DNA of 64,000 nt, taken from contig JAUCBJ010007049.1 of assembly GCA_032718475.1 (NCBI GenBank), positions 1-64,000 on the forward strand, written 5' to 3'. Below are positions 1-46,909 of the stretch, piece after piece (within the stretch, counting starts at the first letter, position 1; each line of letters begins with the position of its first letter). Origin of the DNA: Nemertoderma westbladi (taxonomy: Eukaryota > Animalia > Xenacoelomorpha). Made by a program: the position numbers and the translations under genes. Under the pieces are notes generated by a model. It was given only the letters and a program-made list of their open reading frames with translations. It was not told the DNA's origin and did no database searches.

Positions 1-1
1 T

Positions 2-22518: not shown

Positions 22519-23068
22519 TGTGACGGGATCCACGAAGGATCCCGATTTATCCGTTTGTCAATCTACGCGTCCCCGCCGTGTGTGAAAGGTAAAAGAGTTT
22601 GCGTTGTTCGTCGTATATAATTTCCGGGTATAATAGATAGATATAAATAGTATGTTGTAATGTATAGACTGAATGTTGATATATGGAAGGCGGGATATGG
22701 TGATTGAAGTCCCGGTACTTCCCTAGCTAAACTAACCTAACTAACACCAATAACACACTGAAATAACTGAGTAACTGATTGCTGGTACCTAATAATATAT
22801 TGCACGGTTTGGCCTTGCTACAGTACCTAGCTGATACTCCCCCCCCCCCCCCCTGATTGGCTAATGTCCCTGTTGGCGCCCTTTGGAGTGTTCCCGTTCA
22901 CTCCAGCTATTCTCCCTCTGTTAGGGGTTTGGCCCCTGACCCTTATTGTGTGTTTCTCCTTCCCACTTTGTTGGGGTGACACGAGTTATTGGTTACCCAA
23001 TCTCGTGGCCCCCAATATTGCTTAACGGTTGACTTTGTGGGGTGTTAGCGGAATTGAATAAGCTAACA
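22519..23068 (-). repeat. 3' LTR of D (550 bp)
   Basis: Minus strand TGTTAGC...GTCACA, PPT at 23069-23077. Confidence 0.88.
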
Positions 23069-23773: not shown

Positions 23774-26383
23774 TCAGTTCATCCCCCCTGACTTTGGGAA
23801 CCACCTCAAGTCTTTCCCTTTGCCGTCCTCCTCCCTGGGTCGTTTCCTGGTCACTACCGCTCCTCTGGGATCCGCTTTCTGTCTTCGGACCCTCGCCGCC
23901 ACCTCCTTACTGATCCCGGTCGTTGGCTCTTTGGGTGCTGGTGTTATCAGCTCCCGATATCGCTTCGCGGGTGGCCCCTCCGAGTGGCCCTGTTGTCTCC
24001 CCCTGGTGGCGTCCCATAAGATCATCTTCATTGCCCGCGGCACGTGCTCCGCCAGGAAATCCCTAAACTCCCCTCGATTCTGTGGCGTCCACCTGTCCAA
24101 ATACCTCTGTGTATTTATCACCCCGGCATACGACGCCGCCGTTGCTACCTCTTGATAGGTAAACGGTAGCCTCCGCTTTATGATTTCCAAATGAGCCTCC
24201 TGATTGATGAGGAAGAAACCCCACTTGAACTCCTGGGCCTTCATGCGCTGGCGCGTCATGGCCCCGACGTCGGCCCACTCCTCGAAGGTTCTGAACTTCT
24301 CTTCGTCGTCCATCCAGTCGCACTGGCGTCCGTAGTGTCCCCGAAAGTTGCACTTCGGACATCGGTTATCCAACCGTGGACACGCCCCCATCCTGTGGCT
24401 CGACTCGCGGCAGTAGAGACAAAAGGTCCCCTTTTGGAATCGGTACAAACAGCTCCTTTCCTGGTGGGTCTGTCTCCCACAGTAATCGCAACCGAGTACC
24501 AATGTCTCCCGCCCCACGTCGTCTTTCGTCCCAAGCGATCTCCGCGGTCTGTGGAGTCGCTGGTAGGTGAACTTCTGCACGTTAGTGTCCCTGTCTACGT
24601 CAATCTCCTCGCCCCTCTCGGGCATCGTCTCCCCGAATACTACCCGTGGTGCCGTCCCCGGTTGCTCGCCCAACCTGATAGTGCTCCCCGCAAAATCCAT
24701 CACCGGTTCCTTGTGCACCCAGGCCCGCTTGCCTGGTCTATCCCAGAAGGCCCTCGCCCCACTGGCAGTCACCACCCTCCCGCCAACCCAGTCCGTGTCC
24801 GAGTGGCCTATCCTCCCGATGGGCGGCATCTCTCCGAATTCGTCGTCGTCTTCATCCTCCTCTGGCAGTGGTTCCAACCCCGGTATCCCGATGGATCCAC
24901 TATGTCCCTTCCCGCCTTGGCTCTCGCCCGTAGCTCTCCATCCCTCTAGCTCCCTTAACTTCCTTGGCGGTTGGTCGCCTTCGGCGCCCGCTGGTATGGG
25001 CATCGCTTGCAACCCCGATGTCGACTGTTTCGGCGATCCCACTGTCCATCCCAGTTCTCGCCCTAGAGACTCCCCTGAACTCCCTGATGAAGTCCAACGA
25101 AGTTCGTCTAAGCCTGCCTGTTCCTCGAAGCCGTAACTCTGCATCCTGGCCTCCTCCTCCCTCTCCTCTGCTTCTATCCTCTCCCGTCTAGCGACTTCTT
25201 CCAGTCGCTTTGCCTCTCGTCTATCCGTCTCTAGCTGCTCCCATCTCTGATACGGCGTATCTGTCTCCCCGTCTATCAGATGTCGGCTGTTGTAGTACAC
25301 CGACTCGCCCTTCAGCCCCGGGTGGTCTACCAGACCGTCGAAGGCCGTCTTAAAGGCTCTCCTGTAGCTTAGGGGTGGTCCCGATAACAGAAATGCCGCT
25401 GGTTCCCTCTCGATAACCACGGTCATGAATAAGTTAAGTAAACTTATCATTATCCAATCTTCCTGCAGGATATATCGCTTCTGATATACCTTTATCGCTC
25501 CTCTGCGGAATTGATACACCTCTTGCCTTCCCGGTCTTGCTCCCCACTTTAGCGAGTTCGCTAGTTCTGCTCCGTATTCCTCCCTGAACTTCCCCCAGTC
25601 CATCGGTTTGTGGCATACGAGCCCCAATAGCTGGCCCATTGCCACCGCCCCACATTGGCCTGTGTTCCCGACTACTCCCAACCCATCTGGTGCCATCATA
25701 GCCATGAAGACCTTCTGCATATCCAGGAGGTTGGTGGCGTCCGGACCGATGATTCTCTCCGCGTCCTCGCGAATCGCCGATCCCACCTTCGTCGTCGACT
25801 TCTCTCTTACCAAGACTTGCACCGCTTTCGGCAACCGGTTTAACTTCGGCCCGTCCCTTTTCCCATACGTTCCTAGATCGAATAAGAAAATGTCCCCATT
25901 TGGCGCGGCCAAATGTAGGAGTATGGTCCTGGCCGACCCCGCTGATCCTCGTCTCGAACCCTCCTCGTCTTCCACGGTTCCCTCGTCGTCTAGGATCATA
26001 TATCCTCCCCTGTTGACGGACTCCATGAACCTCTTCCAATCCTTCTTCGGCGACTCCCTCGGGTACTTCGGAATCCCGAACTTCGCCTCGTCCCCTTTCA
26101 CCACGTAGTGGAAGTGTTGGAAGATCGCGTTGTCCAGCGACGGCGTCCCGTAGGTCCAGACCAGCCGCTGTTCGTGCATCTCCCGGAAGTGGTCCTGCAG
26201 CGCTCGTGCTGCGTGACCCTTTTCCAACCTCTCGTAGTATCCTCTCGTCTTCTCTTCCGGATGCCTCTTGGTGAAATCCACCAGTATCTCCTTTCCTCCT
26301 GACTCCGCCTTTCTCTTTCTGATCAGTTTTCCCGCCATTCCGAACACTCTCACTCGCTCACCTGTAAGGTGGTGCCTTACCAA
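23774..26383 (-). CDS. Accessory protein of D: DEDDy-like 3'-5' exonuclease, 3 CCHC knuckles, basic tail
   Basis: ILDDEG; LLHLAAPNGDIFLFDL; LPKAVQVLV...KVGSAIRED; LLDMQ; YILQE. Knuckles CDYC..H..C, CLYC..H..C, CPKC..H..C. Intact 869-codon frame. Confidence 0.8.
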   Translation of the reverse strand: MVRHHLTGERVRVFGMAGKLIRKRKAESGGKEILVDFTKRHPEEKTRGYYERLEKGHAARALQDHFREMHEQRLVWTYGTPSLDNAIFQHFHYVVKGDEAKFGIPKYPRESPKKDWKRFMESVNRGGYMILDDEGTVEDEEGSRRGSAGSARTILLHLAAPNGDIFLFDLGTYGKRDGPKLNRLPKAVQVLVREKSTTKVGSAIREDAERIIGPDATNLLDMQKVFMAMMAPDGLGVVGNTGQCGAVAMGQLLGLVCHKPMDWGKFREEYGAELANSLKWGARPGRQEVYQFRRGAIKVYQKRYILQEDWIMISLLNLFMTVVIEREPAAFLLSGPPLSYRRAFKTAFDGLVDHPGLKGESVYYNSRHLIDGETDTPYQRWEQLETDRREAKRLEEVARRERIEAEEREEEARMQSYGFEEQAGLDELRWTSSGSSGESLGRELGWTVGSPKQSTSGLQAMPIPAGAEGDQPPRKLRELEGWRATGESQGGKGHSGSIGIPGLEPLPEEDEDDDEFGEMPPIGRIGHSDTDWVGGRVVTASGARAFWDRPGKRAWVHKEPVMDFAGSTIRLGEQPGTAPRVVFGETMPERGEEIDVDRDTNVQKFTYQRLHRPRRSLGTKDDVGRETLVLGCDYCGRQTHQERSCLYRFQKGTFCLYCRESSHRMGACPRLDNRCPKCNFRGHYGRQCDWMDDEEKFRTFEEWADVGAMTRQRMKAQEFKWGFFLINQEAHLEIIKRRLPFTYQEVATAASYAGVINTQRYLDRWTPQNRGEFRDFLAEHVPRAMKMILWDATRGRQQGHSEGPPAKRYRELITPAPKEPTTGISKEVAARVRRQKADPRGAVVTRKRPREEDGKGKDLRWFPKSGGMN

Positions 26384-26809
26384 GGCGCAATACAGATGAG
26401 TGACAAGTTTCTGATGGTCTGCACAGTTCGAGAATGGCCTATTTTCTATCTAACTACGCCTTTTAGCCTAATTTCTATTACTTAATTTTGTAGCTAACAA
26501 ATGTACCCTATTTTCAATTTCTGTCCGTTGCTTTAATTATGTTCCAGAATAATTCCCCTCCTGTTACCATAATTTGTAATTTTTAGCCCTATTTATTCTA
26601 TTTTATTTCTAATCTATTTCTACTATTTACTGCTTATGGATTATTCTATTTCATAATCCACATTCTGACCTACTCTATGGGCCCCTGCAGTACAGCAGTA
26701 TATGTCGCGTGGCCTACACGATCTATCCAACTGTACTCATATGCCCCCCTCTCGCTACTAACTACTGACTAATATCTATACTATGTATACCCTTCCACCT
26801 CTATCTCTT

Positions 26810-27895
26810 ACTAATCGGTACTACGTACCCTCTTACTACTCTCTAACTAACTAACGGTACTATGTACCCTCTAACTCTTACTCTAACTCCACTAACGGTA
26901 CTACGTACCCTCTTACTCCTACTCTGACTCCACTAATGGTACTACGTACCCTCTTACTACTCTCTAACTAGCTAACGGTACTACGTACCCTCTAACTCTT
27001 ACTCTAACTCCACTAACGGTACTACGTACCCTCTTACTACTCTCTAACTAACGGTACTACGTACCCTCTTACTACTCTCTAACTTCATTAACGGTACTAC
27101 GTACCCTCTTACTACTCTCTAACTAGCTAACGGTACTACATACCCTCTAACTCTTACTCTAACTCCACTAACGGTACTACGTACCTTCTTACTACTCTCT
27201 AACTAACTAATGGTACTACGTACCATCTAACTCTTACTCTAACTCCGCTAACAGTACTACGTACCCTCTTACTACTCTCTAACTAACGGTACTACGTACC
27301 CTCTAACTCTTACTCTAACTCCACTAACGGTACTACGTACCCTCTTACTACTCTCTAACTAGCTAACGGTACTACGTACCCTCTAACTCTTACTCTAACT
27401 CCACTAACGGTACTACGTACCCTCTTACTACTCTCTAACTTCACTAACGGTACTACGTACCCTCTTACTACTCTCTAACTTCACTAACGGTACTACGTAC
27501 CCTCTTACTACTCTCTAACTTCACTAACGGTACTACGTACCCTCTAACTCTTACCCTAACTCCACTAATGGTACTACATACCCTCTTACTACTCTCTAAC
27601 TTGACTAACGGTACTACGTACCCTCTTACTACTCTCTAACTTCACTAACGGTACTACATACCCTCTTACTACTCTCTAACTCCACTAACGGTACTACGTA
27701 CCTCCTAACTAACTAACTAACTAACTCTAGGTACTATGTACCTTCTAACTGACTAACTCTAGGTACTACGTACCTTCTAACTAACTTCTAACTAACTAAC
27801 TAACTAACTAACTAACTCTAGGTACTACGTACCTTCTAATTGACTAACTCTAGGTACTACGTACCTTCTAACTAGCTCCTAACTAACTAACTCTA
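26810..27895. repeat. Tandem array of ~36-46-bp units between pol and the accessory ORF of D
   Basis: About 25 copies of ggtactacgtacc separated by ctct(a)act-type linkers. Confidence 0.95.
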
Positions 27896-28004
27896 ATTTT
27901 TTATTTATTTTATTATTTATTTTATGTGTGGGAAGGGCGTCTCGCCCTCAATCCCACCCCCCTCAGTCCAAACTTGGACGACTAAACTACCCTCTAACTC
28001 CACC

Positions 28005-30961
28005 CTAAGGTGCCCCTTCTAGTAGACAGCATTTCCCTACAGCTCTCCTGTAGGTTTTTCTGTCATTCGCACCTATCTTGCCACCTATCCGCACTTCTAC
28101 CGATCGGACTCTTCCGTCCTCATCGGAGTAAGTGCCTACGACTCTCGCCAACCGCCACTGGTTGTTGATGATAGTATCATCCGTAACGATTACGAGATCT
28201 CCCTCTCTTAACTCCCTATTCGACTTCCTCCACTTGCTTCTTTTGTGAAGCGTGGGTAGGTATTCCTCAACCCACCTCCTCCAATACTCTGCGCTTATTG
28301 CTTTAGCGACCTTCCAACTCTGGCGGGAGTGTATGTCATCTGGGTCTACACCCCGCATATCGATGGTCGCTGGCCTTTCCATTAGAAAATGGCTGGGTGT
28401 CAGCACATCTAATGACTCAGGGTCATCATTCTCCGGATATAGCGGTCTGCTATTAATGATACCCTCGCACTTCGCAAGCACTGTCCTCAAGACGTCCTCG
28501 GTGACCATGTGGGTGTTCATTAGCTTCGTCATGAGACGCTTTGAACTGCCCACCAGTCTCTCGACGCATCCTAGTGTATGTGGTACATACGGCGTCCTTC
28601 TCTCCCACTTTACTTGTCGTCGTCTCATGGCCGCACTGACTTCCTCCCCTTCCAAGATGTCCAAGGCCTCTGCCATCTCGTTCTCTGCTCCCACAAAGTT
28701 GGTTCCGCTATCGGAGTACATTACTTTGCGGTCTCTGAATCTTTCTAATGCATTAATAAATGCTGATGCGGTTGCATCTTGGGCGAGTTCTATCCCTACC
28801 GCCCGCGTGTTGTTACATACGAAGATAATACTGTAGCGTTTCTCCATGTGCCGCATCACCTTGATCTTTATCGGCCCGAACATGTCCACACCGCAATGTG
28901 TAAATGGCGGGTCGTGCTGTCTTACTCTACTCGCTGGTAGTGGTGCCATCTCTTGTATGGCTCGCTCCTTCTTTGCTCGTCGGCAGGTCTGGCACTGCCC
29001 CACTACCGCTTTTACCTTCTTCCTCAACTGCTTGACCCAAAAGGTCCTCCTTATGTCCGTGAGAGTTCGGTTGGTGCCCCCGTGCAATATCGACTTGTGG
29101 GAGTCCCAGATAATCTGGTGGACTATTGGCGATCCTGTGGGAATGATGATGGGTTTCGGTGGTACGACTATGCTGTTGTTGTATCCCACCCTAGAATTCA
29201 TTACTAGAATCCCGTTGTCATTAAGTTGTGGCGACAGCGTGATCAGCTCGCTGTCCCGTCGAAGGTGCTGTTGTTTACCGACGCGTTCCACCTTGTCGCC
29301 ATAGTTCTTCCGTTGTTCATAGCGGATGACTGCCTTGGCCGCTCCTTCCAGATCTATGGTTGTCCTGATCTTCTTGTCTTTGCCAACTCCCGCGAGGAAA
29401 TTCCCGAAGGCTCTCCAGTACGCCACTAATTTCTTGGTCTTATACCAACTAGAGCTGTAGCTGAGGAGTTTATCTGTCGGGTTATCGCACAGTTCTTCTG
29501 GTTTAGGTTGCACGTCCCTTATCTCCCTCACCATCTGGGAGTATATCTCTTCTCCCTCTGAATCTCCCTCTTCTCCTTCTGACACTACCTCTCCTGAGTC
29601 CGGGTCCACCTTTCTCATCGGCGGCCAGGCCTCCTTGTCGCTCAGAAACTGCGGCCCGTGTTGCCACAATACTTCCTTTTTTAAGAAAGTGTGGCGTGCC
29701 ACGCCCCTTGATAACAAGTCCGCTGGGTTCTCGTCCGTCGGGCAGTAGTGCCACCTTTCCAATTCTGTGGTCGCCCTTATCTCGTCCACCCTATTCGCGA
29801 CGAATATTGGGTATCTCGTCCTTTCGTTATGTAGCCAACCAAGCACTACCATGGAGTCCGTCCAGTAGTGTGTCTCCACTATGTTGGGAATAGTATCCAC
29901 TAGGTAGGCTGTGGCTCTAACTCCTAGTCTCGCAGCTGTCAATTCTAATTTGGGAACTGATGCTGAATCTGGCGGCGTTGACTTTGCTTTGCTAAAGGCC
30001 AGTCTGGGCTTGTGAGCCCCCTCTCGTTGTACTAAATAAAGTGCCGCTCCGTACGCCTCCAACGACGCATCGGAGAACATGTGTAGGTCCAGATTCGTCA
30101 TGTTCCCATCCGGGAAATACACTCGTGGCATGTTGTATGTTCCCATCTTCTCCAAATCTTCTGTCCACTTACACCACTGCTTCTTGATCTCCTCTGGTAC
30201 CTCTACGTCCCACTCATCCTTCAGTTTGTATACTCTCTTGAGTATCTGCTTCCCCATGACTAATAGTGGGGATGCTAGACCTAGGGGATCGTATATCCTT
30301 GCTATATACGACACATAGCCTCTCTTTGTGTGGATGTCTGCGCCCTCCTGGCTCAGCTGGTACTTCAGTTCGTCTGTCTCTCTGTTCCACACGATTCCCA
30401 GTGCCTTCTGTTGGGATTCTGTCCTCTTGTTCGCCATGTCCTGCCCTTTGGCCGTTGTGGGATTATCCATGGTCGATTCTGGTCTCTTGTCCTCTATCGC
30501 CTTGATAAATTCCTCCAAACTGGATTGGAATTTGGTCAGGTTAAAGCCGGATCCTTTTAGGATGTCGCGAACCTCACGCCCTGTGTCCAGTATCTCCTTA
30601 ACCGTATTTCCAGACTCCATTCCGTCGTCTACGTAGAAGCCGCGTCGAATCATATCGATGGCCCTAGTGCTGTATCTATCCTCCTTCCCCTTCACTGTAT
30701 CTCTCACTGCCATAGTCGTCGTAAATGAAGACGACTTGGCTCCCATGTTCTGTACTACCATCTTGTACGTCGGTATTATCGACGGTTCTTCGTCACCGTC
30801 GTACCATAAGAAGCGTTGACTGTCGCTATCTTCCTCCGTTACACGGACTTGGTTGAACATGCCTTCTATGTCACACGTGAAGGCGTGTTTCCCATTCCTA
30901 AATCTAAGTAGGACCTCTATCCCCGAGTTGTATATGTTTGGACCTTCTAGTAGATAGTCGT
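28005..30961 (-). CDS. Pol of D (RT, RNase H, integrase), frameshifted from the upstream part
   Basis: FYVDDG, FSDAS, YWTDS, NPADLLSRG, HGG..CQTC, GVDMFGP, SDSGTNF, ERLV. Confidence 0.9.
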
Positions 30962-33888
30962 TTAAGCATTGGTCTTTGCCGATGCGTCAACTACCATCCG
31001 CAATTTACCTTTCTTTGGGTCTAAAGCCACGTGGAGTGGCAGGTAATATGTCCTGTCCGTGTTTGGTTCGTCGACCGGTAACTCCACGGCCCATCCTTTC
31101 TCGACGTACTTCTTAATCGTTCTGTGGATGTACTCATTCTTCTCGGGGCTCCGTTTTAGTGTCTGTTTCAGCTTGCGGAGCCTCGTGAGTACCATCCCTC
31201 TATTATCGGGCAGTGGTAACTTCGGTAGTTTCCATACCATTCCTATAGTGTACCGCCCCTCGTCGCACTTCATAGACTCCTCTACGCTCTGCTGAGCCTG
31301 TTTGTCTTCCACCGAGGTCCCGACACCAGTCTCCTTTAATCCTTCAAAATCCTGTCTGAGCAGTCTTTTAAGCTGCTCCTCTGCTCTCTCATCACTCATT
31401 TCCTGCATAGTTCCCGCGAACATGCATCCTGATGTCTCCGACATCCTAAATGGTATCTTGCTCTTGATTGGGCCACTCAGCGTCCACCCGAATGGTCTCA
31501 GTATCGCCACCGGGTCACACTGCTTGTCTTCGCCGAAGACCGTTTGCATTCTTTCGTGGGCCGTTGGGCAGTCCATTCCTACTATGATGGATACCTTCCT
31601 AACGTCCACATCTGGGATTGAGAAGTCAATATCATCCAGAAATTTATATTGTTCGACCTCGATGTTGGTTGGCTGTCTGGCATTGATGTTTATTGAGTCT
31701 ATCACTTGGATGGGGTCGATGCTCGCCCCATAGTCGCATCCTGGTGCTATTGCTGCGATGGTGCACCGTCCGGTTCTCATCTCCAGGACCTCATCCTTGC
31801 TGGAGATGGTTGTTACCGCCATTCTACTTGGCCTCGTTCTCAATCCTATTTCTTCGGCCACCCAATCCTCGACTAATGTGAAGGCAGCTCCACTATCAAC
31901 CAGCATTAGTGTTGTTACTGATCGATTGCCTTCTCCAATCACTCGCACGGGTACTACCCCAAGTAGCACCGTTCCTCTCTTCTTCGCCCCTACTGTGCTC
32001 GTTGCCATCGTTTGGCCTTTCCTTTGACCGAACTTGACCGGCGTCTCCTTGCATTGCCTAGCTCTATGTCCACTCATCACAAATCGCGAGCAGATCTTGT
32101 TCCTCGCCGCATAATCTACCTGATCTTCCCTAGGTAGCGCTTGCCAGTACCTGCAGTTCATGGTTTGATGAAGCGCATTTGTATGTAACTGGCATTTGCT
32201 CTTTGGGTCGTAGCCCTCCTTATACAGTGCATCGCGTATCGCAGCTGCGTTTGTACCAAAGTCCCTACTATTCTTATTGTTTGGATTCGGCCTACTGGAC
32301 GTACTGGGGTTATATTTATTCGTGTTGTTATTGTTCCCCTGTCCGTTCCATGGTGTGGTCTTACCTTCGGCTACCTGTGGACTTGCAGTCCCCTGCGTCG
32401 CTGCATATGGCAGTGATTGCCTGAGCTTCGGTAATGCGTTTGACGTACTGTGCTCTGGTTTCGGTCTATGGTAATCCGTCTTCGGTCCCTTTCCCAGGCT
32501 ATCCTCGCTATAGACTGGGTCGGTTATTAGTTCAGCTTCGTAGTTTAAGAAGCTCGACATTTCTTCTAAACCCGGTTCCGCACCCTTCCTATCTCGAGTG
32601 GAGAAAGCGATTTTCCTCCACTTGTTGCGCAACCACATCGGTAGTGCCTGCGCTATCGTGGTGATGTTGTTGGACGCGTTGAGTTCGTATGGCGCGTCTA
32701 GCGTCTTTAACACGATTAGTGCCTTCTCGACCTTGTTCGCGAACGTCTTAATGCTAACGGGATTATCCTGTAGACCACCCGATGTTATGCCTCTCAGGGT
32801 CTGCCTGATGATCTTGGCCGGGTGCCCGTATTCCCTGTCCAGTGCCTGCCATGCCGTTGTGAAGCCGCCCTCTATGCCCTGATATTGCCTCACGATGTCG
32901 TATGCTGGGCCTCCTGTGTATACTTGCAAATACTTTAGGCACTCCGCCTGCGTTAAGTTCTTTGTTAGTATTTCGTTACTATACATACGCCGAAACTGGA
33001 GATATTCTTCCGGCCTACTCCCATCGAATTTGAATGGTTCCACGGGTGGTAATTCGATCCTTGTTTTTAATGCATCGATCAACGTGGCCATCCCCATCGC
33101 CTGCGCTTCCAATGGATTCGATGGATGTTGTATAGTTCCTCCTGTTGGGTGCGGTCCTCCCGTTCTATTTTCTGCCTTTCTTTGGCTTGGGTATATCATT
33201 GGGGGTAACGGCCCCCTCCATATTTCTGTGTCACACGACCTATTTTCATCCAAGGGTCTCGTTGTTCTTGCTCCTATCGGGGTATATTGTTGATATTGCG
33301 ATGGGGGAATGTCACCCTGTCCCCCCCCCCACCGGTATGTTTGGTATTGGGGTTGATGTTAATATATTGGGGCCCATGCATCTATCCGCAATAATTCCCC
33401 CCTCCCCTGGGTATATGTTATGTCCTTGCATGCTGTAGTCATACTGCTGTACTGGTACCGGTATAGGCCTATCAGCTTCTGGCCTACCTGCCGGTATGTA
33501 CTCCGCGACTTCCGGGTTTAATTCCGTCGCCCGCGCTATCCTATCGCCTACATTATTCCTGTCAGCATGGCCTATGGTATGTGCAGTAAGGCCTACAGTA
33601 TGTCCTACAGTCTGTATGTATTGCTCGGGATCGAAGTTTATTCTTCTCGAATAATCCTCCCCGCGGCTACCGTACTCTCGATCTGTAGGTATATCCCGTC
33701 GGAAAGTTTCTCTTCGACCCTCTCTACTACTCTCGTCTACATGCCGGTACATCGCGTACCCCTCCCTTGACGCGTAACGCGTCTCGTCAGGTCGCGTCTC
33801 TCCGGGATGACGGCAATCTCCCGAAGTTCGACCCCACCGACTCTCCCTTTCCATCTCCACCACCGACGGCTCAAATAGAAGCCTACCG
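30962..33888 (-). pseudogene. Gag, protease and start of RT of D, with frameshifts
   Basis: KFDGSRPEEY gag motif, degenerate CCHC, LVDSGA protease, YYLPLH...RMVVDAS. Breaks near the C-run at ~33325 and at ~30965. Confidence 0.85.
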
Positions 33889-34843
33889 TATTATTCGACT
33901 GATCGTAATATATAATCTCTGACAAATATTATTCACTTTCGGGAAATATTAACAGTTCCTTTAGGGCGTGGCGCTCTAAATATGTAAACAGAGTTATGAC
34001 TTAAACTAGACACAACGAAAAGGCTATAGATTCACGTATATGGCGCATTCTTTAGGAGATGCTTTGTTATCAGTTACAATCATACACAATGCTGCACAAT
34101 ACTGCACACTAATCTGCCGACCTTCACTAAATTTAGTCATGTATAAAGAGAGCAACATACAATTTATGTCGGGCCTATGAAATAGCATTAGATTCACTTC
34201 AAACCACTTAACATAGGTCGCAATCGTTTATCTATAACCGGTCTCTCTAACCTTTAGTATATCAAGAAGGTTGGGTGTCTGACTATTGATCAGTATTCCG
34301 ATATAATATTTCATCAACAAATATAATGAATAACCGACAGTAAAAGCAGTAAAGTTAAGGTATGAATGATTATTAAGTGAGTTAACTGAGTTTTGGTCTG
34401 ATAACATATATACACTCTATAATTAAGCCTACCAATGTTAAGCTAAAGACTGAAACACGGAGGTGCCAAAAGCCGGTGTTCTTAGGCTCTGGGCAAAAAC
34501 ATAACCCTGAATTCCTGAGTTTCTGTATCCACCTCCAACACAGAGACAAAAAACGCTCTGATTGGTCGACCGAACAACGAGAGAACAAAGAAACAAAGAA
34601 ATGTCGATGTGGCAATATCAGCTGTTAGCCGTCGTCATGGTAGCGACACTGTTTTCAAGAGGATCTAGCTTATTGCGTCACGAGATTGCGGATTATGTCC
34701 TCTAAAGTACAAATACAGAAGAAATGACTTTTATGTCCTCTAAAACACCAGTACAGTAAGGACACGGCCCTTTATGCCTGTTAAACCAACTACAGAGTAC
34801 TTTACGGGGAAAATAACCGGCTAATTACGCAAAAGCCTTTACA
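33889..34843 (-). repeat. Putative 3' LTR of C (~955 bp)
   Basis: Starts TGTAAAGG right after GGGAGCGG, the same PPT-like motif that precedes B's 3' LTR. The left end is inferred from where the D gag frame resumes; no second copy in the window. Confidence 0.55.
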
Positions 34844-34921: not shown

Positions 34922-37900
34922 TTAGTATTTCTTACGAGGATGGCGTTTACGCAGTTTTTTGAGGCTAGCAAGAGTCCTTTTCTCTTTGGGGCGAGCCACT
35001 TTACTAGGAGGGCTGTAACTCCTGGGTGAAGGGTGCAATACAATTGCATCAGAAGGTTTAGGATTACTATCGGTGTATCCGCCAGTTGAGGTACCTGGTT
35101 GATCGATATCAACTTCAGTGGAGCGAGGTCTAACGGCCTTTAGGGCGCGTCTTAGGACAGCAGCTCCTACGGGTCCTTGACGGGTCGTCTGGACAACGGC
35201 GGTAGGTGGACCGTGAGTGGTGAGAAACTTCCTTGGTTTAATGGTTCTAATGATGACCATTAACTCAATTACAACCATTAATGGTTTAATGGTTGTAATT
35301 GATCAAATGGTATGAAGTAATATCGTTAGGATTGACGTTCCTAAGATATCTTCGAACAAATTTAGTGGAAATACACTCACCAACACGCTTCATTAGCTCG
35401 TAACTCGGTATGCGTGTTTTTTGTTCCACAGACACTAATAAATAAGGATGGAACGCGTAAACTCCCTCGTAAGAGCGTCCAGGGTAGTATCGATGACGGG
35501 ACTCACAATGTAAATCCGCGTTAGCTTCCCAAGCTCGGATGTAGCGCAGGGTAATCATTTCATCTACGCTCTCTAAATCGTGATTAAAGGGGCAATTATA
35601 ACTGGCATGTCCTTTAAGTTGACAGTGGTGGCATTGAGTCATAAATTGGGGGCAGACTGCAAAAATATGAGAGTTATTAAGTCTGCAATACGCACAATAT
35701 ATCTCCATCATCGGTTGTTCGTGGAAATAGGAGCAGGGCACGTCTGAGTCCATAGGGGTGAAATGGTCTCTCGATGCGCATAATCTACAACGTTTTCGAG
35801 AAACATAGTTAGCGTGTCGATAATCGTATGCGGTGAGACATTGTGGACCTTGATACCACTCTAAGACGTAGTCGTTATCGCTGCTCCGGGGTGCTGTAGG
35901 CTGAATCGCTTCAGCTTCTAAGCATATTGGTTCGTCTTCCAATTGCATAGCTGAGGTAGGTGCGGCTGTCTCCGCAAGCGGACCCACTGTCTGAACTTCG
36001 ATGACAAAATAACCCGTGGGTATTCGGGGTCTTTGTATAACAGATGAATGTAAGTTCTGTATACAAATGTCCTGAAAAAGGGCAAATCCCGCGCTGTTTA
36101 GCTTCTCCGCCGCTGAGTCTCTCAGGCTGAGTTTGGTCAGAGCGCGGTCCTTGAACTGACTATCAACGTTACGGAACGGAGTCAGAAAGCGCCTGAAACA
36201 TTCAAAGCGGATGAATTTATTGTGTTCATCTAACTTGGCGAGTTTGGTTCCGAGTATTAAGGGATGGGCGCGTATGGTACGACTGCACACATCGGCTAGC
36301 CAACCGGCAAGTGCTGCGTTTTCAAAGATCGTGTATATAGCTAAGGAGGGACGAAGTGGAACACTCATAAAGCTATACACGGCGCCAGGTGCGGTCAATG
36401 GTCCATCAAAGTATAAACGAGAATAATGATCTCCGTATACTTGTTGGTAATTGATAGGATTTCCAACCTTGAAATTCCATCCGTATTCTTGAAAGGCAAG
36501 ATGTCCGATGGAGGTTCGTTGTACTTTAGTAATTCCGCTGGGTGTATTGGCATACATAGTGCGGAAGAAACCTCGGCCTTCTGCCCAAGGAGCAATCAGC
36601 TGAGTATCAACGAAGGGGTATGGAATGTTCTCCATATTCCGAAAGTCGTTCTGTAGGTCTCCATAAACAGCTGAGCCGATTTTAAGGATTCTTTCGTTAA
36701 ACAACATCTCGAGCACGGGTTGGGGTAACATCGATCCATCGATACCCATGGCCGGTTTGCGCTCGGTGTCGGTGACGTAACGCTGCGCAAGTTCAAATTG
36801 TCCATGTCGGAGTTTCTTTTGTGTCTCAGTAAGAGTTTCAAAAGAATAATCAATAACGTCGGAACACGCTCGAGTAAATACGTGGGTAGAACCAGCGAGT
36901 CCTCGTATATGTATCATCCACGTAGTTCCAAGTTCTCCAACCGGAACGCTACCTTCGTTATCGTAAGTGACAACTCCATACATCTCGATAACGTTAAGAG
37001 TTTCGTTCCACTCCTTTGTGGCGTTTTCGAGTGTCATTCCCACAGGATGCCACAAGGTAGCGCATTCTCTAGCATTAGGCAGGTCTTTATACTTTAAATA
37101 TTGTGTGGTATGTGTTTCCACATCTCCATATCGTTGTATTCTTTCCTCCTCGAATAACACATCAAGATTCCAGTGCACTAAACGAGTTTTGATGAATCCA
37201 TCAAGATTATACGGAGGTATTGTTTCTTTCTCTATTCTGGAAACATTATATGGTTTTCGAAATGAGTTTACTTTAACTAACTGATCCAGATGTTTCTGCA
37301 GTTGTTCGAGTTCGACAAGATCGAGAGGATTTATTAGCGGTAGAAACTTCAGACTATGTGTAGGATCTTCCGGTTTTACCATGTAATATTGTTTTAGATT
37401 GACGTAATAAGGGTGATCTTTGATCCCGTAAAACGAGTCCGGTAAAGGTCTAGCGCGTGTGTTTACATTGTGTACCATGCGACGGACAAGATCTGCTCTA
37501 TTGTCCGGAGGTTCAACGAGTATACCATCGACACGAGCGGATTCGATGGGCGGACGCTGCAACAGAGGAGCGTCGGCGATAAGATCTCGAGATCTTAGGT
37601 TGATATCAACCGGTTGGGGTTGTGCCGTCGCAAAAAGTTTGTCTCCGAAATGGGGAACCATCGAGGGATGAAGAATGGTTTTAGAGTAGAGATCCGTCAT
37701 AAGGATTTGCGCTTCAGGTTGAGCTAAAGCCGCTTCTTCTCTCTCATCCAGTTCTATATGTCTCTCCTCGAGCTGATTCTCCTCCGCTTGTTGTTGTAGA
37801 CGCTCATCTAGAAACTCTTGTAAAGAGTAGGTTCGTCCACGTTCGATGTCCTCCTCGAGATTTTGTATTTCTCTATCGAACTGGGGTAAAGCTAATTCCT

Positions 37901-39110
37901 TCACCGCTTGGACTTGTTGCTGCAATTTACGCTTCTCCAAACAATCGTACGTTCCCTTTCCGATTTTCTAGCGTCTAATGCGTTTCGTACGACGCTCTCT
38001 TCTACTTCCGTAACGGGTTGGATAGAGGTGAAGCCGGGGTGGTTGTATGGGTTAAACGGCAATATTAGATGACCACGTCCCAATCCAGCTAGGTAGGGTT
38101 GGCGAATGTCTCGTGAGCCTACTACCGGAGTGCCACCGATCAACTGTTCGGGTAACACTAGATCTTTGAACAGTGAGTACAGTTCGGGAGGATCCGTGAT
38201 ACTATTAGGGTCAAGAGTTTGAGGTCTGACTAAGGAATGCGGAGGTCTGACCGAGTATTCCGGAACTCTGATCATCGGTTTGTTCAAGGATCGCTTGTGT
38301 CGAGCGACCGCGGGGGACACGTCGAACAGGTTTCGCTCGAAACTCCCGTAAGTATATTGTGTAAAACTGTGTTTAGCGCAACGTCTCCGCGGATGTTTAC
38401 GTCTTTCCGTTTGCTGATTGGGTCTAGGGCATTCGTCGCAGTAATACCACAGACGCATGTCCTGCAGAGGAAACGCGGGTGATCGTTCTCCAGTTTTACA
38501 ATATTCCTCCATCTGTTCGAAGCTATCTGGGACAACAGGTAGCGGTCGATCGGCGGTAAGATACATCATAGTGAAATAGAGTCGTTTGAGTTCTATCATA
38601 GGATCATGATGTATACCTTGAGGATATCGAGTTTCGAGATTTTGTTGACTGGCAATATTGAGGTATGTTTCTCTCAAGAATTCCAGATAATCGTTGAAGT
38701 CGTTGCGTTTATCCGGTTCTTCAACGTCTTCTCTTTCGAGTCGGTTTCGAATAGAGTTCTCGTGTTCTATTCTTGGCTTATCGTTCCGATTCCGTTGGGT
38801 ATGATATTTAAATAAAACCATTTCCCTTTCGGTATCCACATCGTCCGTATCGTGTAAATCGATAGGGTGGCCAGTAGTTAGGAAGTCCATATACGTACCA
38901 TTACGATGCGTATCCATATTTCTTTCACATCTTTCTATAATCCAATTCACGCGTAAGTTGCTCCGGGGACATTGGCGGTTCGATATAATGACCATCATCC
39001 TCCGTAGTAGTTGGACCAGCGTCGCCGCGTATCAAGCTATCGACAAACGCTTGTAAAGGTAGAGTATATCGCTCCCTGATACCAAGATCATCTTCTATCA
39101 ACTCAGTCAT
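34922..39110 (-). pseudogene. Accessory gene of C, probably one ~1400-aa frame broken by frameshifts
   Basis: Consecutive overlapping or abutting ORFs 39110-38925, 38998-37901, 37940-35286 and 35278-34922 (basic tail). Confidence 0.6.
35286..37940 (-). CDS. Exonuclease plus CCHC knuckle part of the C accessory protein
   Basis: VTYDNEG; LPQPVLEMLFNERILKIGSAVYGD; FVDTQ; SIGHLA; PLRPSLAIYTIFE; three knuckles; WEANADLH. Confidence 0.8.
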   Translation of the reverse strand: MEKRKLQQQVQAVKELALPQFDREIQNLEEDIERGRTYSLQEFLDERLQQQAEENQLEERHIELDEREEAALAQPEAQILMTDLYSKTILHPSMVPHFGDKLFATAQPQPVDINLRSRDLIADAPLLQRPPIESARVDGILVEPPDNRADLVRRMVHNVNTRARPLPDSFYGIKDHPYYVNLKQYYMVKPEDPTHSLKFLPLINPLDLVELEQLQKHLDQLVKVNSFRKPYNVSRIEKETIPPYNLDGFIKTRLVHWNLDVLFEEERIQRYGDVETHTTQYLKYKDLPNARECATLWHPVGMTLENATKEWNETLNVIEMYGVVTYDNEGSVPVGELGTTWMIHIRGLAGSTHVFTRACSDVIDYSFETLTETQKKLRHGQFELAQRYVTDTERKPAMGIDGSMLPQPVLEMLFNERILKIGSAVYGDLQNDFRNMENIPYPFVDTQLIAPWAEGRGFFRTMYANTPSGITKVQRTSIGHLAFQEYGWNFKVGNPINYQQVYGDHYSRLYFDGPLTAPGAVYSFMSVPLRPSLAIYTIFENAALAGWLADVCSRTIRAHPLILGTKLAKLDEHNKFIRFECFRRFLTPFRNVDSQFKDRALTKLSLRDSAAEKLNSAGFALFQDICIQNLHSSVIQRPRIPTGYFVIEVQTVGPLAETAAPTSAMQLEDEPICLEAEAIQPTAPRSSDNDYVLEWYQGPQCLTAYDYRHANYVSRKRCRLCASRDHFTPMDSDVPCSYFHEQPMMEIYCAYCRLNNSHIFAVCPQFMTQCHHCQLKGHASYNCPFNHDLESVDEMITLRYIRAWEANADLHCESRHRYYPGRSYEGVYAFHPYLLVSVEQKTRIPSYELMKRVGECISTKFVRRYLRNVNPNDITSYHLINYNH

Positions 39111-40749: not shown

Positions 40750-43700
40750 TTAAGTTGGGGAGTCCCTAGATGTTTGTTGGATTAGGGAGGTGGTCGTGGG
40801 AAGAGTATCTTGTCTCCCATAGTTTCCGGAGAGTTCTCTGTCTCTTTCCAGTAAACATAAGCGACCAACTGGGCGATTGAGCTGCTGCGTCTCGAAGACA
40901 ATTCCCGGTTTCTTGAAGTTACGTCGCATGACGACGAGTTCTACTGATCGCACCAAACCGTCATCCGAGATGTGAGTCTCGATGATACGACCTGTCTGCC
41001 ACCGCTTACATAGAAGATCTACATCCACAATAAGAACCATGTCTCCAGCGCTGACGTTTTCTTGCTGCGCAAACCACTTAGTTCGAAGTTGTAGCGTGGG
41101 CAGATAATGTTTTTCGAAATGGTCAGCGAAACGACGGGATAACAACTGCATGAGTTGCCAAGTTTGTCGGCAGTATTCGTCTCCGTCTGTGATTTCCGAT
41201 TGTGGGAGCATGGCTACAGGTTTCTTCAGTAGGAAGTGCGCGGGTATTAGCGCTTCCAGGGAATCGGGACTCGATGAGACTGGCATAAGCGGTCTCTCGT
41301 TGAGATAGGCGGCGATTTCTTCCATTAACGTCCGCAAAAGTTTGTCGGTGAGATAAGCGCGGCAAGGCACTATAAAATGAAATGCTGTCTTCACACTTCT
41401 TATTAATCTCTCCCAACTTCCTCCCCACCAAGGGGCGTCGGCGGCGTTGAAGGTCCAACTAGACGCTGTTACTCGTAGTTGGTCGTCCACCTGTCTTTGG
41501 TTCCAATCTTTGACGTAAGCTTTGATTTCATTGTTAGCACCAATGAAGTTTGTTCCCTTATCAGATCTCATCGTGTTACTAGTGCCAAAGCGAGCGATCT
41601 GTCGTCGTGAGCTTAATAGAAAGCTGTTGGTAGATAAATCGTTCACCATATCGAGATGGATGGCTCTACAAGTCATACAAACAAAGATTACACACCATCT
41701 CTTGACTATAGTCCTAGCACGATATACTTCAATAGGGCCAAATAAATCCACACTGGTATTAGTAAAGGGTGGTTCATAAAAGCTTACTCGTTCCCTAGGT
41801 AATTCTGCCTCTCTCTGTGTTAAAGGCCTACTGAATGCTTTCCTACAGGGTATACAGTTCCTAAGAACTTGGTTCAGAGCTCTACGGGGTTTATAAAAAT
41901 AATAGCGAGTTCGAATTTCGCTAAGAACTCGTTCTCTACCAGCATGATAAAGTTTGCTGTGAACATCTACAATCATCTTGACTTGTATTTCAAGATTTCT
42001 AATGAGTATGGGGAACTTAGTATCAAAGGATAATGGGGCATTCGTTAACCTTCCTCCAACACGTATCAACCCATCTATCATTGTGCTAGAGAAACGATCC
42101 CTTAAGCGCATCTGTGGATTTCTCAACAACAGGAAATACTTATCGGAATCTTCATAGCATTGTAAGAGTCTCAGCATCTGTTTGTTGGTTTCTTCATGCT
42201 CCTGATAACTGATCTTCTCCTTCAGAAACCTGTCGGGTATCTTATGTTTGGGAAGATCTTTAATAACATGGACCTGCACTGATGTGATTGGAGCGGTATC
42301 ACCCTTTGTGAAAATGGTGAAAACATCTCTTTAAATATGTAACGGCCTTACAGAGCCGATTCCAGGAACTGTAGTGATGTATCGCTCTCTGCAGAAGAGG
42401 TGAGAGTCCTTGCGAGACGTCTGGTATGCCAGATTTCCAATCCTTATCACGGATTTCTACAATGGGTTTATTTGTGGCTGTGGGTTTCTGATCCAAAGCG
42501 TCGTCTCCGGAAGTATGTAGGACAGACAGATCTACTGTGGGTTTGAATAACTTCGATTTACTCGCCTGAGTTTTAGGTTTGACTTTCTCCGCTCCCTTGG
42601 CCTGTCTAATCTCTGCTGTAGTAAGATGAGGAGGCCATTCTTCTTCTTCTTTGTAGAGGAAGTCGGGTCCACCTAACCAGTCTGGAGTATCTACCAGTTC
42701 TTGTGGAGTTGCTCCCCTGGAAGCGATGTCCGCTGGATTAATCGTTCGGGGCAATGTCTCCATTGATCCATCGTCGTGCGACTGAGTATAATAGCTACTC
42801 TGTTGGTAACGAAGACGCTGAACTGACAGACTTCATTGGTGATATACTCCAACACGAGTAAAGCGTCGGTCCAATAGACAGTTTTCTCCAGGGGATAGTC
42901 GATCTGTTCTGTTACATTCCGGCCAATGGCTGTAGCGTATAGAGCCGCTTTTAACTCCGCTCGAGGAACTTTCAACTTGTTGTTTATCAATGCCTTAGAG
43001 GTAACCAAGGCGACTTTGATTCCGTCCGGAGTTTCCACCCTTAGGTAGGCTACTATACCGATTCCCATATTGCTGGCGTCTCCAAACACATGGAGTTGAT
43101 ATGAATACGTAGGGAGAACATGACCAAAATATGAACGGGAAATTATAAAGTTTTCGATGGCTGGTAGAGAATCTTCCCATTTCATCCACTTCTTTAATAA
43201 TTCTCCCTTAAGTGGATCGTCCCATGAGTGGTTTTCAAGCCACATTTGTTGTACTAAACTCCGAGCAATTAATATAACTGGGCTAATAAATCCCAATGGA
43301 TCGAAATAAGTGCTCAGGATTCTTAAACAAATCCGTTTAGTCCGAACTGGATTATCTCGCTGTTTTAATTGGAAAAACAGGATATCTCTTTCTGTGTCCC
43401 ATTTCAAACCAAGGGTCTTAGTTTCTGGTAGATCATCCTTTATTAGATCTAGGTCTTTTGCTCCTCGATCTTCTACCGGGATCGACTCCAGAAACTCACG
43501 GGAGTTGCTAGTGAATTTAGTTAATCGAAATCCACCTTTCTTTAAACATTCTACCGTTCCTTTAGCGACCTCAATGGCTTCTTCGACTGATGGAAGGGAC
43601 TTCAGATTATCGTCCATGTAGATGTTTCGTTTGATATTGTCGATCACCTCTTTAGAGAAGGCGTCTCGGTTGTCATCCGCAGTGGTGCGCACCACGGAAC

Positions 43701-44980
43701 AGGCGTTTGAAGGGCTCGAGATTATCCCAAAGGCTTGGATGGTCATCCAGTACTCCACCGGTTTCTTGTTGAGGTCTCCTTCAGGCCACCACAAAAATCG
43801 TAGGCTATCTCGATCCCTATCCAGCGCTTTGACTTGTAAGAACATGCCTTCTATATCTGAGGCGAAAGCAATGGAATATTGTCTTAATCTTAATAGTATT
43901 CCCAACAAGGATTGGAGTAAGTTGGGTCCGGGTAACAATTCAGAATTAAGAGATTGGCCCATATAAAGGGCGGAACCGTCAAACACCACTCGTACTTCAT
44001 GGGGTTTACCGGGTTTGGGAACGTAATGGTGAGTTAAATAATACGTTCTCTCAGTTATAGGTGTTTCTTCCGGTACTAGCTCCGCATATCCCTTGCTAAT
44101 AAACTTCTTCAACTGCGTTTGATACATTTCTTTAGCTGAAGAATTTGCTGTAAGGCGTCGATGTACTTGAGCAATTCTTTTCTCCGCCAAAGGTCTGTTG
44201 TTAATGAACTTTGGTTCTCGCTTTCGGAAAGGAAGTCCGATCTCATACCTACCTTGATCTTTAAGAAAACGAGTAGTTGTCGCTTGGATCTGCTTGGCTC
44301 TTTCTTCCTCCACCGATAGGGCCTTATCGTAGGAGTTGGGCTCTACAACCTCTTGAGTAAAGAATCTTACGGCGTGTTCATCCCGAGTCTTGGCATTATA
44401 ACGTTCAATGACGTCATTAAGCTCATCGTTATAGTCGTCTCGCTCGGATGGGAGAAGGAGTTGACATAAGTTCACTTGATTTTGCCAAGTCTCGCTTTCC
44501 TTAAAGAGATCGATGGCATTCTCCTCATCGAAAAGTTGATGTATATCGTCGTTGTCTGAGGAGTATGGAGTTCCCTCAGTTGGATCGTCGAACTCACTGT
44601 TCTCAACTTCCAATTCTCGCACTTGATATACCTGATCTTTCGGTAATCTTTCCATGAGAGTTCTACGGGAAGGGCCAGTAAAGTACCAACCTACTCTAGT
44701 TCTTACCGCATAGGTTTGTAGTGGCTGCGGTTGAGCAGGCCGTTTCTCCAATGTCTCGAGCGCCTCATGCGCGTTTTGGCCGATGAGTATTTGCACTCCA
44801 GGATAATCTGTCTGGAATCGAGGTATCTTAAGATGTTGGATGCTCTCATCCTCGTCCCAATTATAAAGGTCTGCTTGGGTAGTAGCGAAGTTCTTTATAG
44901 CCACCATTTTCACTGACCTTATGCTATGTTCTCCTAGTTCGTCCTGGGGGGTGGACAACGCACCTACATAATAATCCGCT
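40750..44980 (-). pseudogene. Pol of C (end of protease, RT, RNase H, integrase) with two frameshifts
   Basis: IYMDD, FGDAS, YWTDA, NPADIASRG, HAGR..CIPC, VDLFGP, SDKGTNF, WERLI. Breaks near 42750 and 42290. Confidence 0.9.
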
Positions 44981-45108
44981 TATAGAATTATATTCTCTAA
45001 ATGCCGTGGATTTTCAAAATTTTATTTTTATTCGAATTAACTTTGTAAAGATTGCTTTGAGTCCTCATTTGTATTGCTATTTCTATTTATACGCCTATTG
45101 GTCAAGTA

Positions 45109-45193
45109 GTTCAGTAGCTCAGTCGGTAGAGCGTTGGAAATTATATGTGTAGTAGGTATTGAGTTCGAATCCTAGTAATGCGAATTATTTTTT
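45109..45193 (+). ncRNA. tRNA-derived cassette in 5' LTR of B
   Basis: TAGCTCAGTCGGTAGAGC (A box/D arm), GAGTTCGAATCC (B box), T6. Anticodon and acceptor arms are degenerate. Confidence 0.65.
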
Positions 45194-45389
45194 GTGCAGA
45201 ATTTCAACTCATTTAAATTGACCGCTACAAATTAATTGCATTTGTCTGTACCAATGAGACTGCAGTTATTAGATTGTAACCAATGTCGTGCAAGTTATAT
45301 ATTAGCTGGACCAATAGTTATCTTTAAAAACCTGTTAGAACCTATAGAACAATCGAGAATTTTCTCGATTGATTGCAGCACAAATTTGG

Positions 45390-45420
45390 TATATAAAGGT
45401 GCGATTTCGTTCATTAGTTA
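45390..45420 (+). promoter_or_regulatory. Candidate TATA/Inr in LTR of B
   Basis: TATATAAAG followed by TCATTAGTT; TATAAA is retained in A. Confidence 0.4.
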
Positions 45421-46909
45421 TCTTTCTAATTCTATTTCAGATTAATTATTCTGAGTTATCTGATATTTGTTTATTCTGTCATTAGTATTCAGATTACATT
45501 TTGTATTATTATCTGCAATAAATTCAGAAATACCGCTATCTGCTTTTCCTTTCACCATGGATTCACTACGGTGAACAACCTTAGGAACAGGATGGCCGGC
45601 TAGAGATCGGGCCGCAGCAATGAACGGGAACATCGGGGGAATGTAGACAAGAGACAACCCGCAATACCATCTTGAGTTATTCGCCCATCGCCTGAAAGGT
45701 TAGACAGCGTTCGACGCCTTGCTACCTAAGTGTAAGACCAAAAGATCAAAGGGTAGAAGTAGTGACACGCTGTGAGCCTAAAATTACATCTTAGGGACTG
45801 TACTGTCTTGATTCAGGAAAAACCACAGTAGACCTTCACATTCCTACGGGGGGGAGAGCGCAGGCAGAGATACTAGTACGCAGATAGGACGTAGGCACAC
45901 CGGTACGAAGCATACAAATTGGTAGGGTGCAGCAAACTGTACGCCTAACTCTTGCTAAGTACGGGTGCGTCTGTGACTATTTGCAGTACAACAGTGTCCA
46001 TTGCATCAGAACTTGTAGGCTAGGAGGGTTGCTGTGTTTTCACCTGAATTGGGATTGTACCGTTCAGGCGGTAGGGCAGTTTACAACTAGGCGCAAATAA
46101 ATTGAGGCTATTAGGGATATACTAACATCTATCGTGTCCCCGCCAACGCCCTGATAGGAAGTTACCCAGCCTACCTGGGTGACTAAAATTCTAGATAAGA
46201 GCCAGGATAGCTATTAGTAACTGTACGCCTACAGTAGTAAACTAACACATCTCTTCTTAGTATCAGGGACCTGGTACCTAAAATTGCCGAATTCTGGGCG
46301 TAGCATTAACCTTATGCCTGAATTTGAGTCCTGGAAATACGCAAGAGGGGAAGGAACCTTATCATACGAATATTCTAATTTTGTAACTTGTAGGTCCAAT
46401 ACTCACTATTGGACCTACAAGTTACAAAATTAGAATATTCGTAAAATGCACACCGTACCCAGTAATTATATATGTGAAGGAGCAAAACTGCTTTTGACCG
46501 TTCAAAATTAACACACGCGCGTTAGAAATTATTTACACCTCAAAATATATAAAATTAACTTTTGTCCGTACTGTGCTTTGCCCGCTAGTTAGACATCTCC
46601 AAATCTCTGCCTTTGTACCTAGCTAGCGTCCCTTTCGCCCAACCATATAAATCACACCGCGGCAAAGTATACGAGCCCCTTAGTCCGTCAGTGGGTCAGC
46701 CTGATTTTAGGATTCGCTGCGCGGGATTTTGTTTTATCGAAGTTTGTCTGCTCGTAGACTGTTTTCTGCCTCACCGGTTATAAGAGATCGATACTGCAAT
46801 ATATTCGCTTACTTAGAGTTTACTGTTTTGGTGAGAAGGTCGGATTTATGATTTGATTCACAAACTTTACAGTAGGATATTGCAGGTATTGTTACCGTCT
46901 CTTCCAATA

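Follow-up and report, generated by a model that had tools for sequence, protein, structure and literature searches.

A candidate DnaQ-fold exonuclease gene with three zinc knuckles in the envelope position of BEL/Pao retrotransposons from Nemertoderma westbladi

Introduction

What is the role of a gene that occupies the envelope position of BEL/Pao retrotransposons but whose product does not look like an envelope protein? This question is raised by a 64,000-nucleotide stretch of DNA from the xenacoelomorph Nemertoderma westbladi (GenBank assembly GCA_032718475.1, contig JAUCBJ010007049.1, positions 1 to 64,000; hereafter, the window), which contains the BEL/Pao elements D, C, and B. An initial annotation, made from the nucleotide letters without database searches, had noticed in element D, between pol and the 3' long terminal repeat (LTR), an open reading frame (ORF), here called ORF3, with exonuclease-like motifs followed by three zinc knuckles, and had proposed that it is an old gene maintained by the elements themselves. 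Our analysis supports a DnaQ-like domain in ORF3 of D, finds the full architecture again in a protein from outside the window and related ones in C and B, and reveals signs of long-term selection on this gene. Nuclease ORFs of retroelements have awaited a functional explanation since a 2017 report on rotifers, in which neither a departure from neutrality nor an activity was shown.

An uninterrupted reading frame in the envelope position of element D

ORF3 of element D is located on the minus strand between the end of pol (28005) and the polypurine tract (PPT) plus 3' LTR, that is, in the env location. Its frame extends from 26383 to 23774 and comprises 869 codons when counted from a TTG at 26383 (the origin of all D residue numbers given here), with the first ATG at 26338. 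Since other copies of D exhibit indels of 1-2 nt at 26347-26350, just 5' of this ATG, and all of the 12 listed indels (of 39) lie outside the span from start to stop codon, ATG 26338 is probably the start of ORF3 and the 15 codons before it are noncoding. The 869-codon frame of the initial annotation is thus present, with a likely product of 854 aa. The DEDDy-type motifs quoted for it were all found in the order given: ILDDEG (residue 130), LHLA (156), IFLFDL (165), KVGSAIRED (199), LLDMQ (219), and YILQED (304). The three knuckles, which begin at residues 632, 655, and 675, are each an exact CX2CX4HX4C, as had been claimed, and show weak PDB matches to Air2, Lin28, and nucleocapsids. They are followed by a post-knuckle module that matched no Pfam family and by a basic tail (Table 1).

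The highest 19-residue hydropathy value is 1.44 in D, 1.19 in C, and 0.81 in B, such that no transmembrane (TM) segment is predicted, and the N-terminus of the D protein is basic and devoid of a hydrophobic signal core, in agreement with the lack of signal peptide and TM segment already noted. An envelope or other membrane protein (fusogen) is ruled out on these grounds.

Related genes in elements C and B and in a protein from outside the window

The gag-pol regions of D, C, and B all contain the BEL/Pao-type family PF05380 (E-values of 1e-40, 6e-36, and 1e-42, respectively), DUF1759, DUF5641, and an integrase zinc finger, and their domains follow the BEL/Pao order of protease, reverse transcriptase (RT), RNase H, and integrase. 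Because their RT/RNase H regions are only 34% (D-C), 36% (D-B), and 44% (C-B) identical, the three elements represent old, separate families.

The initial annotation attributed to C the architecture and position seen in D. The layout is indeed the same, but the C knuckles are partly non-canonical (the first is HX9C and the second CX2CX5H) and, in the window copy, the basic tail lies in a different frame from the exonuclease ORF. The knuckle module said to be kept in B is also there, with three knuckles (the second again CX2CX5H), post-knuckle module, and basic tail in a frame of 527 codons; no exonuclease domain was detected in B ORF3 in this copy. Hence, of the downstream signature and basic tail attributed to all three elements, the module stands throughout and the tail stands except for the frame of C. 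Taken by itself, pairwise similarity between D and C is weak: in the exonuclease domain, the local score was reached by 7 of 1000 shuffles and the semi-global score by 28 of 1000, and for the post-knuckle module 2 of 1000 shuffles reached the score.

When 1.84 billion proteins were scanned by HMMER with a profile of the D and C nuclease domains, a single protein was retrieved, P0002 (E 4.7e-4), a 648-aa sequence that is the only member of its cluster and is found on a 9,449-bp ENA contig. Retrieved by the nuclease domain alone, it also carries three knuckles, the post-knuckle module, and a basic end. P0002 bridges the two window sequences, with blastp E-values for the exonuclease domain of 6e-10 against D and 1e-12 against C, and of 9e-14 for the knuckles against D. 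The D, C, and P0002 sequences are only 25-30% identical, and the ORF3s of the element families ~25%. Word-index protein searches were empty for full-length D (0 of 7988 candidates), for C residues 290-893 (0 of 3739), and for the two-sequence profile at E 10 (0 of 5445); neither they nor the full HMMER scan yielded a named host homologue, and no ORF3 relatives appeared among the metagenome contigs, viral contigs, phages, and plasmids searched.

Two further frames lie upstream of these genes. Upstream of the C nuclease ORF, a 376-codon ORF (37901..39031, minus strand) contains a C-x2-C...H...C-x2-H motif without Pfam match, and no listed indel fuses the two. In B, a short frame 5' of ORF3 (57040-57531, plus strand) has a few residues in common with the stretch just after the C nuclease domain, and a frame break occurs near 57315; B seems to begin where the C nuclease ends.

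Profile evidence for a DnaQ-like domain

Several independent, individually weak signals converge on PF01612, the family of RNase D and EXD2. For D residues 60-400, no other named family ranked higher in ESM Atlas features (0.93; 178 of 256 features shared, and 24 of 30 matches to this family); the value of 0.88 for C was taken only as a lead. The NCBIfam RNase D model matched C (E 0.0039) and did not match D and P0002, and C also matched the exonuclease family phrog_1674 at E 0.33. Against a reference hidden Markov model (HMM) of 73 bacterial PF01612 domains, C, D, and P0002 scored 9.2, 3.8, and 15.6 bits, whereas the highest scores among 500 shuffles of each sequence were 4.9, 1.8, and 6.9, respectively; the eight other proteins of the window were below zero or unreported. 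In hhalign, the profile of D, C, and P0002 matched PF01612 with a probability of 93% (E 3.3e-7, score 48.6, where 200 column shuffles reached at most 24.6). D and C without P0002 reached 15%, so that it was the addition of P0002 that raised the probability to 93%, and D by itself aligned colinearly across 132 columns from ExoI on, with a probability of only 6%. In the PDB search with the three-sequence profile, RNase D (E 0.024) was the top match and EXD2 (E 0.14) came third; the two-sequence profile gave no match. On the strength of these profiles, the N-terminal domain of ORF3 very probably adopts the RNase H-like DnaQ fold, as initially annotated.

Active-site residues

Within the motifs that we take to be ExoI, ExoII, and ExoIII, the ExoI Asp and Glu (D132/E134), the ExoII Asp (D208), and the ExoIII Tyr and Glu (Y304/E308) are invariant in D, C, and P0002. 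D132/E134 align with the D-T-E of RNase D, forming a D-x-E as expected for ExoI, and D208 aligns with the ExoII Asp of PF01612. By contrast, the Y-x3-D expected for ExoIII is replaced by Y-x3-E in all three sequences. The register of this motif at Y304/E308 is set by the W-x2-PL-x3-Q-x-Y-x3-E of P0002; an alternative register (Y293 in D, Y531 in C) was ruled out, as no acid follows it. D has an Asp one residue past E308, whereas C and P0002 do not, and the E308 codon shows only silent differences among D copies.

These residues define a D-E-D-E set that we infer to be catalytic. Because its fourth position is a Glu instead of an Asp, activity is less certain than the initial annotation implied, although we still lean towards a functional enzyme. 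We do not class ORF3 as a canonical DEDDy member because its ExoIII motif departs from the consensus and its scores fall below the Pfam cut-off.

Copy diversity and signs of selection

Variation was studied in contigs of four public DNA runs, from at most three samples and three studies, one of which may be the source of the window; read depth was not taken as copy number. At 80-99% identity, 7348 contigs of one run, X1, matched the D ORF and 21302 the C region, showing that D and C are diverse multi-copy families. The counts that follow concern the best-supported 40 of 603 (D) and 40 of 1077 (C) differences, subsets that provide no dN/dS. In D, 38 of the 40 listed differences lie in the ORF and 28 of these 38 are silent, compared with 33% expected for transitions (P 4e-7); within the nuclease domain, 12 of the 15 listed are silent. 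In C, 33 of the 40 were classified, seven clustered at an indel near 38917-38926 having been left out; 11 of 17 are silent in the upstream ORF (P 0.009), one site being counted for both C ORFs.

ORF3 thus shows signs of long-term selection. The claim of an old gene maintained by the element is strengthened by its presence in two families with 34% pol identity, by the silent excess in D, and by an outside homologue with the full architecture; the silent excess and the homologue also rule out a chance ORF in D.

In the same data, contigs in X1, X2, and X3 bypass ~2.67 kb (35061-37752), most of the C nuclease ORF, indicating that deletion derivatives exist as DNA.

Proposed function and alternative explanations

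We propose that BEL/Pao elements may carry and maintain ORF3 as an accessory gene for a 3'-5' exonuclease of the DnaQ fold (RNase D/EXD2-like), to which three CCHC knuckles are attached. The knuckles would grip single-stranded RNA (ssRNA) and the nuclease would trim its 3' end, as in the RNase D of Trypanosoma brucei (TbRND, see below); RNA is the presumed substrate in view of the knuckles and of this precedent. Such trimming or degradation could blunt host silencing by small RNAs. The 2'-O-methylated ends of mature small RNAs resist nucleases of this kind, and the targets would therefore likely be unmethylated precursors of Piwi-interacting RNAs (piRNAs) or small interfering RNAs (siRNAs), or sliced fragments of element RNA. 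Since B is without a nuclease domain in this copy yet looks recently mobile (its LTRs are 97.8% identical), the nuclease is probably accessory and not an obligatory step of reverse transcription, which favours a role in conflict with the host. The earlier idea that these elements depend on the enzyme to trim a primer or to proofread is thereby weakened. An RNA-trimming, knuckle-tethered exonuclease directed against small-RNA silencing is the best overall explanation that we can offer, still short of an even chance, and counter-silencing as the main role of ORF3 is a similarly tentative proposal. Should small RNAs prove to be its substrate, the protein would represent a rare case of an element countering animal piRNA defence with an enzyme of its own. 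A bolder version, which we consider unlikely, is that an ancient clade of long BEL/Pao elements encodes an enzyme that suppresses piRNA/siRNA silencing catalytically, with the knuckles and the post-knuckle domain directing its D-E-D-E exoribonuclease activity, and that shelters nuclease-less B-type relatives in trans; an animal LTR element would then destroy the guides raised against it.

A number of results weigh against this interpretation. Regarding the fold, the hhalign match spans just 65 columns around ExoII, and in the PDB search a gp120 sequence ranked between RNase D and EXD2, with a score as good as that of RNase D (we dismiss this row, and one for HopBF1, as short chance matches). 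At the Pfam gathering cut-off of PF01612 (23.6 bits), D and C gave no match and P0002 reached 11.9 bits (E 0.2). AlphaFold2 models from one and two sequences had mean predicted local distance difference test (pLDDT) scores of 34 and 31 and were unusable, leaving profiles as the basis for the fold; searches of the first model with Foldseek and VIA-align produced noise, evidence neither for nor against. Where ORF3 has Glu, all 35 of the 73 reference domains that matched the pattern have Asp, and this change in the fourth acidic position could lower or abolish activity. In the C nuclease ORF, 8 of 17 differences are silent (P 0.18, not significant), many of its differences looking private to the window copy, and the silent counts in general come from subsets. 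P0002 may or may not be borne by an element. Finally, no result here connects the ORF3 protein to small RNAs.

An active nuclease might instead serve the replication of the element itself, trimming the 3' end of the genomic RNA or primer, clearing RNA fragments, or editing the ends of the complementary DNA (cDNA), with the knuckles as a second nucleocapsid-like chaperone. The knuckles do resemble nucleocapsid-type CCHC motifs, 3'-end processing of element RNA has been proposed for the DEDDy ORF3s of rotifers (PMC5408684), and these elements are long, B measuring 16.6 kb compared with the usual 4.2-10 kb of BEL/Pao (PMC3118150). However, B, the longest, is the one without a nuclease domain in this copy and is apparently recently mobile (trans-complementation being possible), and ORF3 is a separate frame, 1.6 kb from pol, with no evident way into the particle; we regard such a replicative role as unlikely. 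Somewhat less likely still is a weak or dead nuclease fold that binds RNA and serves as a decoy or scaffold in the manner of EXD1 or Maelstrom, with the knuckles and post-knuckle module as its functional core. Both of these proteins are inactive DEDD derivatives (PMC5408684), all three sequences have Glu for the ExoIII Asp, and B keeps only the knuckle module, but a dead site would not need the four acidic positions and the ExoIII Tyr that are invariant despite 25-30% identity, and a variant acidic set, DEED, has been reported for the rotifer ORF3s (PMC5408684).

It is improbable that the gene helps the host or limits the element, as a Mut-7/Nibbler-like silencing aid or as a weapon against competing elements or viruses. 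Cellular relatives of the fold work in small-RNA maturation and such a role has been raised (PMC5408684, PMC6338049), but the great diversity and abundance of D and C (7348 and 21302 X1 contigs) fit poorly with self-limitation. The least probable explanation, by our estimate barely credible, is the neutral capture of a host gene, once per element. The non-significant silent excess in C and the possibility that P0002 is not element-borne would agree with it, as would the rotifer ORF3s, which showed no departure from neutrality (PMC5408684); nevertheless, the ORF is intact and uninterrupted and shows a silent excess in D, the same position and architecture recur at 34-44% pol identity while the ORF3s are only ~25% identical, and three word-index searches and one full HMMER scan found no named host homologue.

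Genomic context of the elements

The elements form a nested stack between 22519 and 64000 (Table 1), in which B lies within the gag-pol of C and the C 3' LTR adjoins the D leader; insertion of C in D is the simplest reading of the latter junction. Element D extends on the minus strand from ~33980 to its 3' LTR, and its gag-pol is broken across three frames in the window copy, in which D ORF3 is unbroken. Only the 3' LTR and PPT of D and C are inside the window, the 5' LTR of D being absent from it. Element A (1-10775, minus strand) is a further copy of the B family, with 92% identity. The LTRs of this family begin with TAT and end with ATA instead of TG...CA and measure ~1.9 kb (44981-46909 and 59706-61600 in B, 8867-10775 in A); the target site duplication (TSD) of B is 5 bp.

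Table 1. Coordinates of ORF3 features and of the elements that carry them in the window
Feature	Coordinates	Strand	Basis or remark
Element D ORF3, 854 aa from first ATG; frame open from TTG 26383	23774..26338	-	
D ORF3, predicted N-terminal DnaQ-like domain	25409..26053	-	Profile comparisons
D ORF3, three CX2CX4HX4C zinc knuckles, aa 632-688	24320..24490	-	
D ORF3, post-knuckle module, E-x-[W/L/N]-A...R-x-R...G-[FV]...P-x-[ST]-Y	24089..24298	-	Common to D, C, B, and P0002
D ORF3, basic tail, 26% K+R	23777..23983	-	
Element C ORF3, 893 codons stop to stop: nuclease domain, three knuckles, post-knuckle module	35286..37967	-	
C candidate exonuclease domain (D336/E338, D437, Y545-x3-E549)	36270..37022	-	
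Element B ORF3: three knuckles, post-knuckle module, basic tail	57315..58898	+	
Element D gag-pol (DUF1759, aspartyl protease, RT, PF05380 Pao domain, integrase, DUF5641)	28005..33890	-	Pfam
Element D 3' LTR, 550 bp, TGT...ACA, preceded by PPT	22519..23068	-	
Tandem-repeat spacer separating D pol and ORF3, 37-80 nt repeats	26771..27900	.	
Element C 3' LTR, TGTAAA...TTTACA, D leader immediately after	33983..34843	-	
Element C pol, disrupted by B insertion; C gag resumes at 61500-63494	40750..44979	-	
Element B, full-length BEL/Pao, 16.6 kb, TSD CCGCT, inside C	44981..61600	+	

Outside this stack, a small LTR element (18769-21776, TSD TATTT) has a left LTR 70% similar to the D 3' LTR, a right LTR of only ~90 nt, and an internal ORF (19881-20750) without Pfam match; it is possibly a non-autonomous relative of D. 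A cytochrome P450 fragment (PF00067, E 2.5e-13) at 15208-16197 on the minus strand is the sole host-like gene among the 16 ORFs scanned. Tandem arrays include a 50-55 nt satellite (12162-13188) and 81-84 nt in-frame repeats in the gag of the B/A family (49392-49783). No tRNA genes were found in the window.

Comparison with known systems

The bdelloid rotifer elements Juno and Vesta are Gypsy-like. RNase D-like DEDDy ORF3s, whose activity was not shown, were described by Rodriguez, Kenefick, and Arkhipova (2017) both for these LTR elements and for Terminons (PMC5408684). The statement of the initial annotation that no description of such a gene was known is thus superseded, since DEDDy ORF3s in the env position were already published; Terminons are covered further in PMC6431247, and PMC6338049 lists the nuclease ORF3 as a well-known accessory domain. 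As in our elements, the bdelloid exonuclease ORF lies downstream of pol in place of env, has neither TM segment nor coiled coil, and was given the same candidate roles (PMC5408684). The differences concern the host element, BEL/Pao here and GPY/F-integrase lineages there, and the acidic motif, which is DEED in the text of that paper and D-E-D-E here (ExoII Asp, ExoIII Glu). The same text describes only a Cys-His-Cys motif in Vesta2/5 and no triple CCHC knuckle or post-knuckle module, and it presents the bdelloid ORF3s as recent, near-neutral gains, whereas ORF3 is here common to deeply diverged families with a silent excess in D (PMC5408684). These differences come from comparison with the published description of the bdelloid ORF3s.

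In TbRND (PDB 7C42/7C45), an N-terminal DEDD 3'-5' exonuclease domain is joined to CCHC fingers at the C-terminus, which bind ssRNA and greatly enhance 3' trimming; the enzyme trims small (guide) RNAs, and its authors call the combination very unusual (PMC7797062). ORF3 likewise has an exonuclease domain followed by tandem CCHC fingers. TbRND is, however, a cellular gene with four fingers, a 28-aa linker, and the canonical ExoIII Asp (PMC7797062), compared with three knuckles, a ~300-aa linker, and a Glu in D. TbRND entries match ORF3 by the knuckles only, weakly (E 1.5, 0.17, and 4.1), and are absent from the exonuclease-profile matches, hence the resemblance is likely convergent.

With the PF01612 proteins (RNase D, EXD2, WRN-exo, Mut-7/Nibbler, and EXD1), ORF3 shares the motif order ExoI D-x-E, 'LP..v..ll....vlKvG.....Dl', 'DtQ', and 'W..PL...Q.Y'. 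It differs from them by its sub-cut-off score, Y-x3-E, an insertion before ExoIII, the fusion to knuckles, and the fact that no HRDC domain was detected. The env-like third ORFs of BEL/Pao (the roo F-type and a mosquito Chuviridae-like glycoprotein) have the same position in the same superfamily (PMC13524379), but ORF3, without signal peptide or TM segment, is predicted to be a nuclease and RNA binder and not a fusogen. Dada DNA transposons also encode a DnaQ-like DEDDy domain, although inside a DDE transposase and with the canonical DEDD (PMC3706591). The word 'exonuclease' is absent from the main text of three BEL/Pao papers (PMC3118150, PMC13524379, and PMC12440569), and none of the titles and abstract openings searched describes a BEL/Pao element with a nuclease-knuckle gene, although one may be recorded in the Repbase, Dfam, or GyDB catalogues, in subscription papers, or in the supplements to the BEL survey.

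DEDDy ORF3s in other retroelement groups and, with TbRND, the combination of exonuclease and CCHC fingers were therefore already known. The novelty, narrower than first thought, lies in the occurrence in BEL/Pao, the fusion to knuckles, the D-E-D-E site, and the signs of long-term selection. Nuclease cargo is thereby extended to a second LTR superfamily, with selection in at least one family, and the invariant Y-x3-E is a natural active-site variant of interest. Compared with the rotifer ORF3s, the RNA-binding arm has in TbRND a solved analogue, which makes the substrate predictable and testable with one soluble protein.

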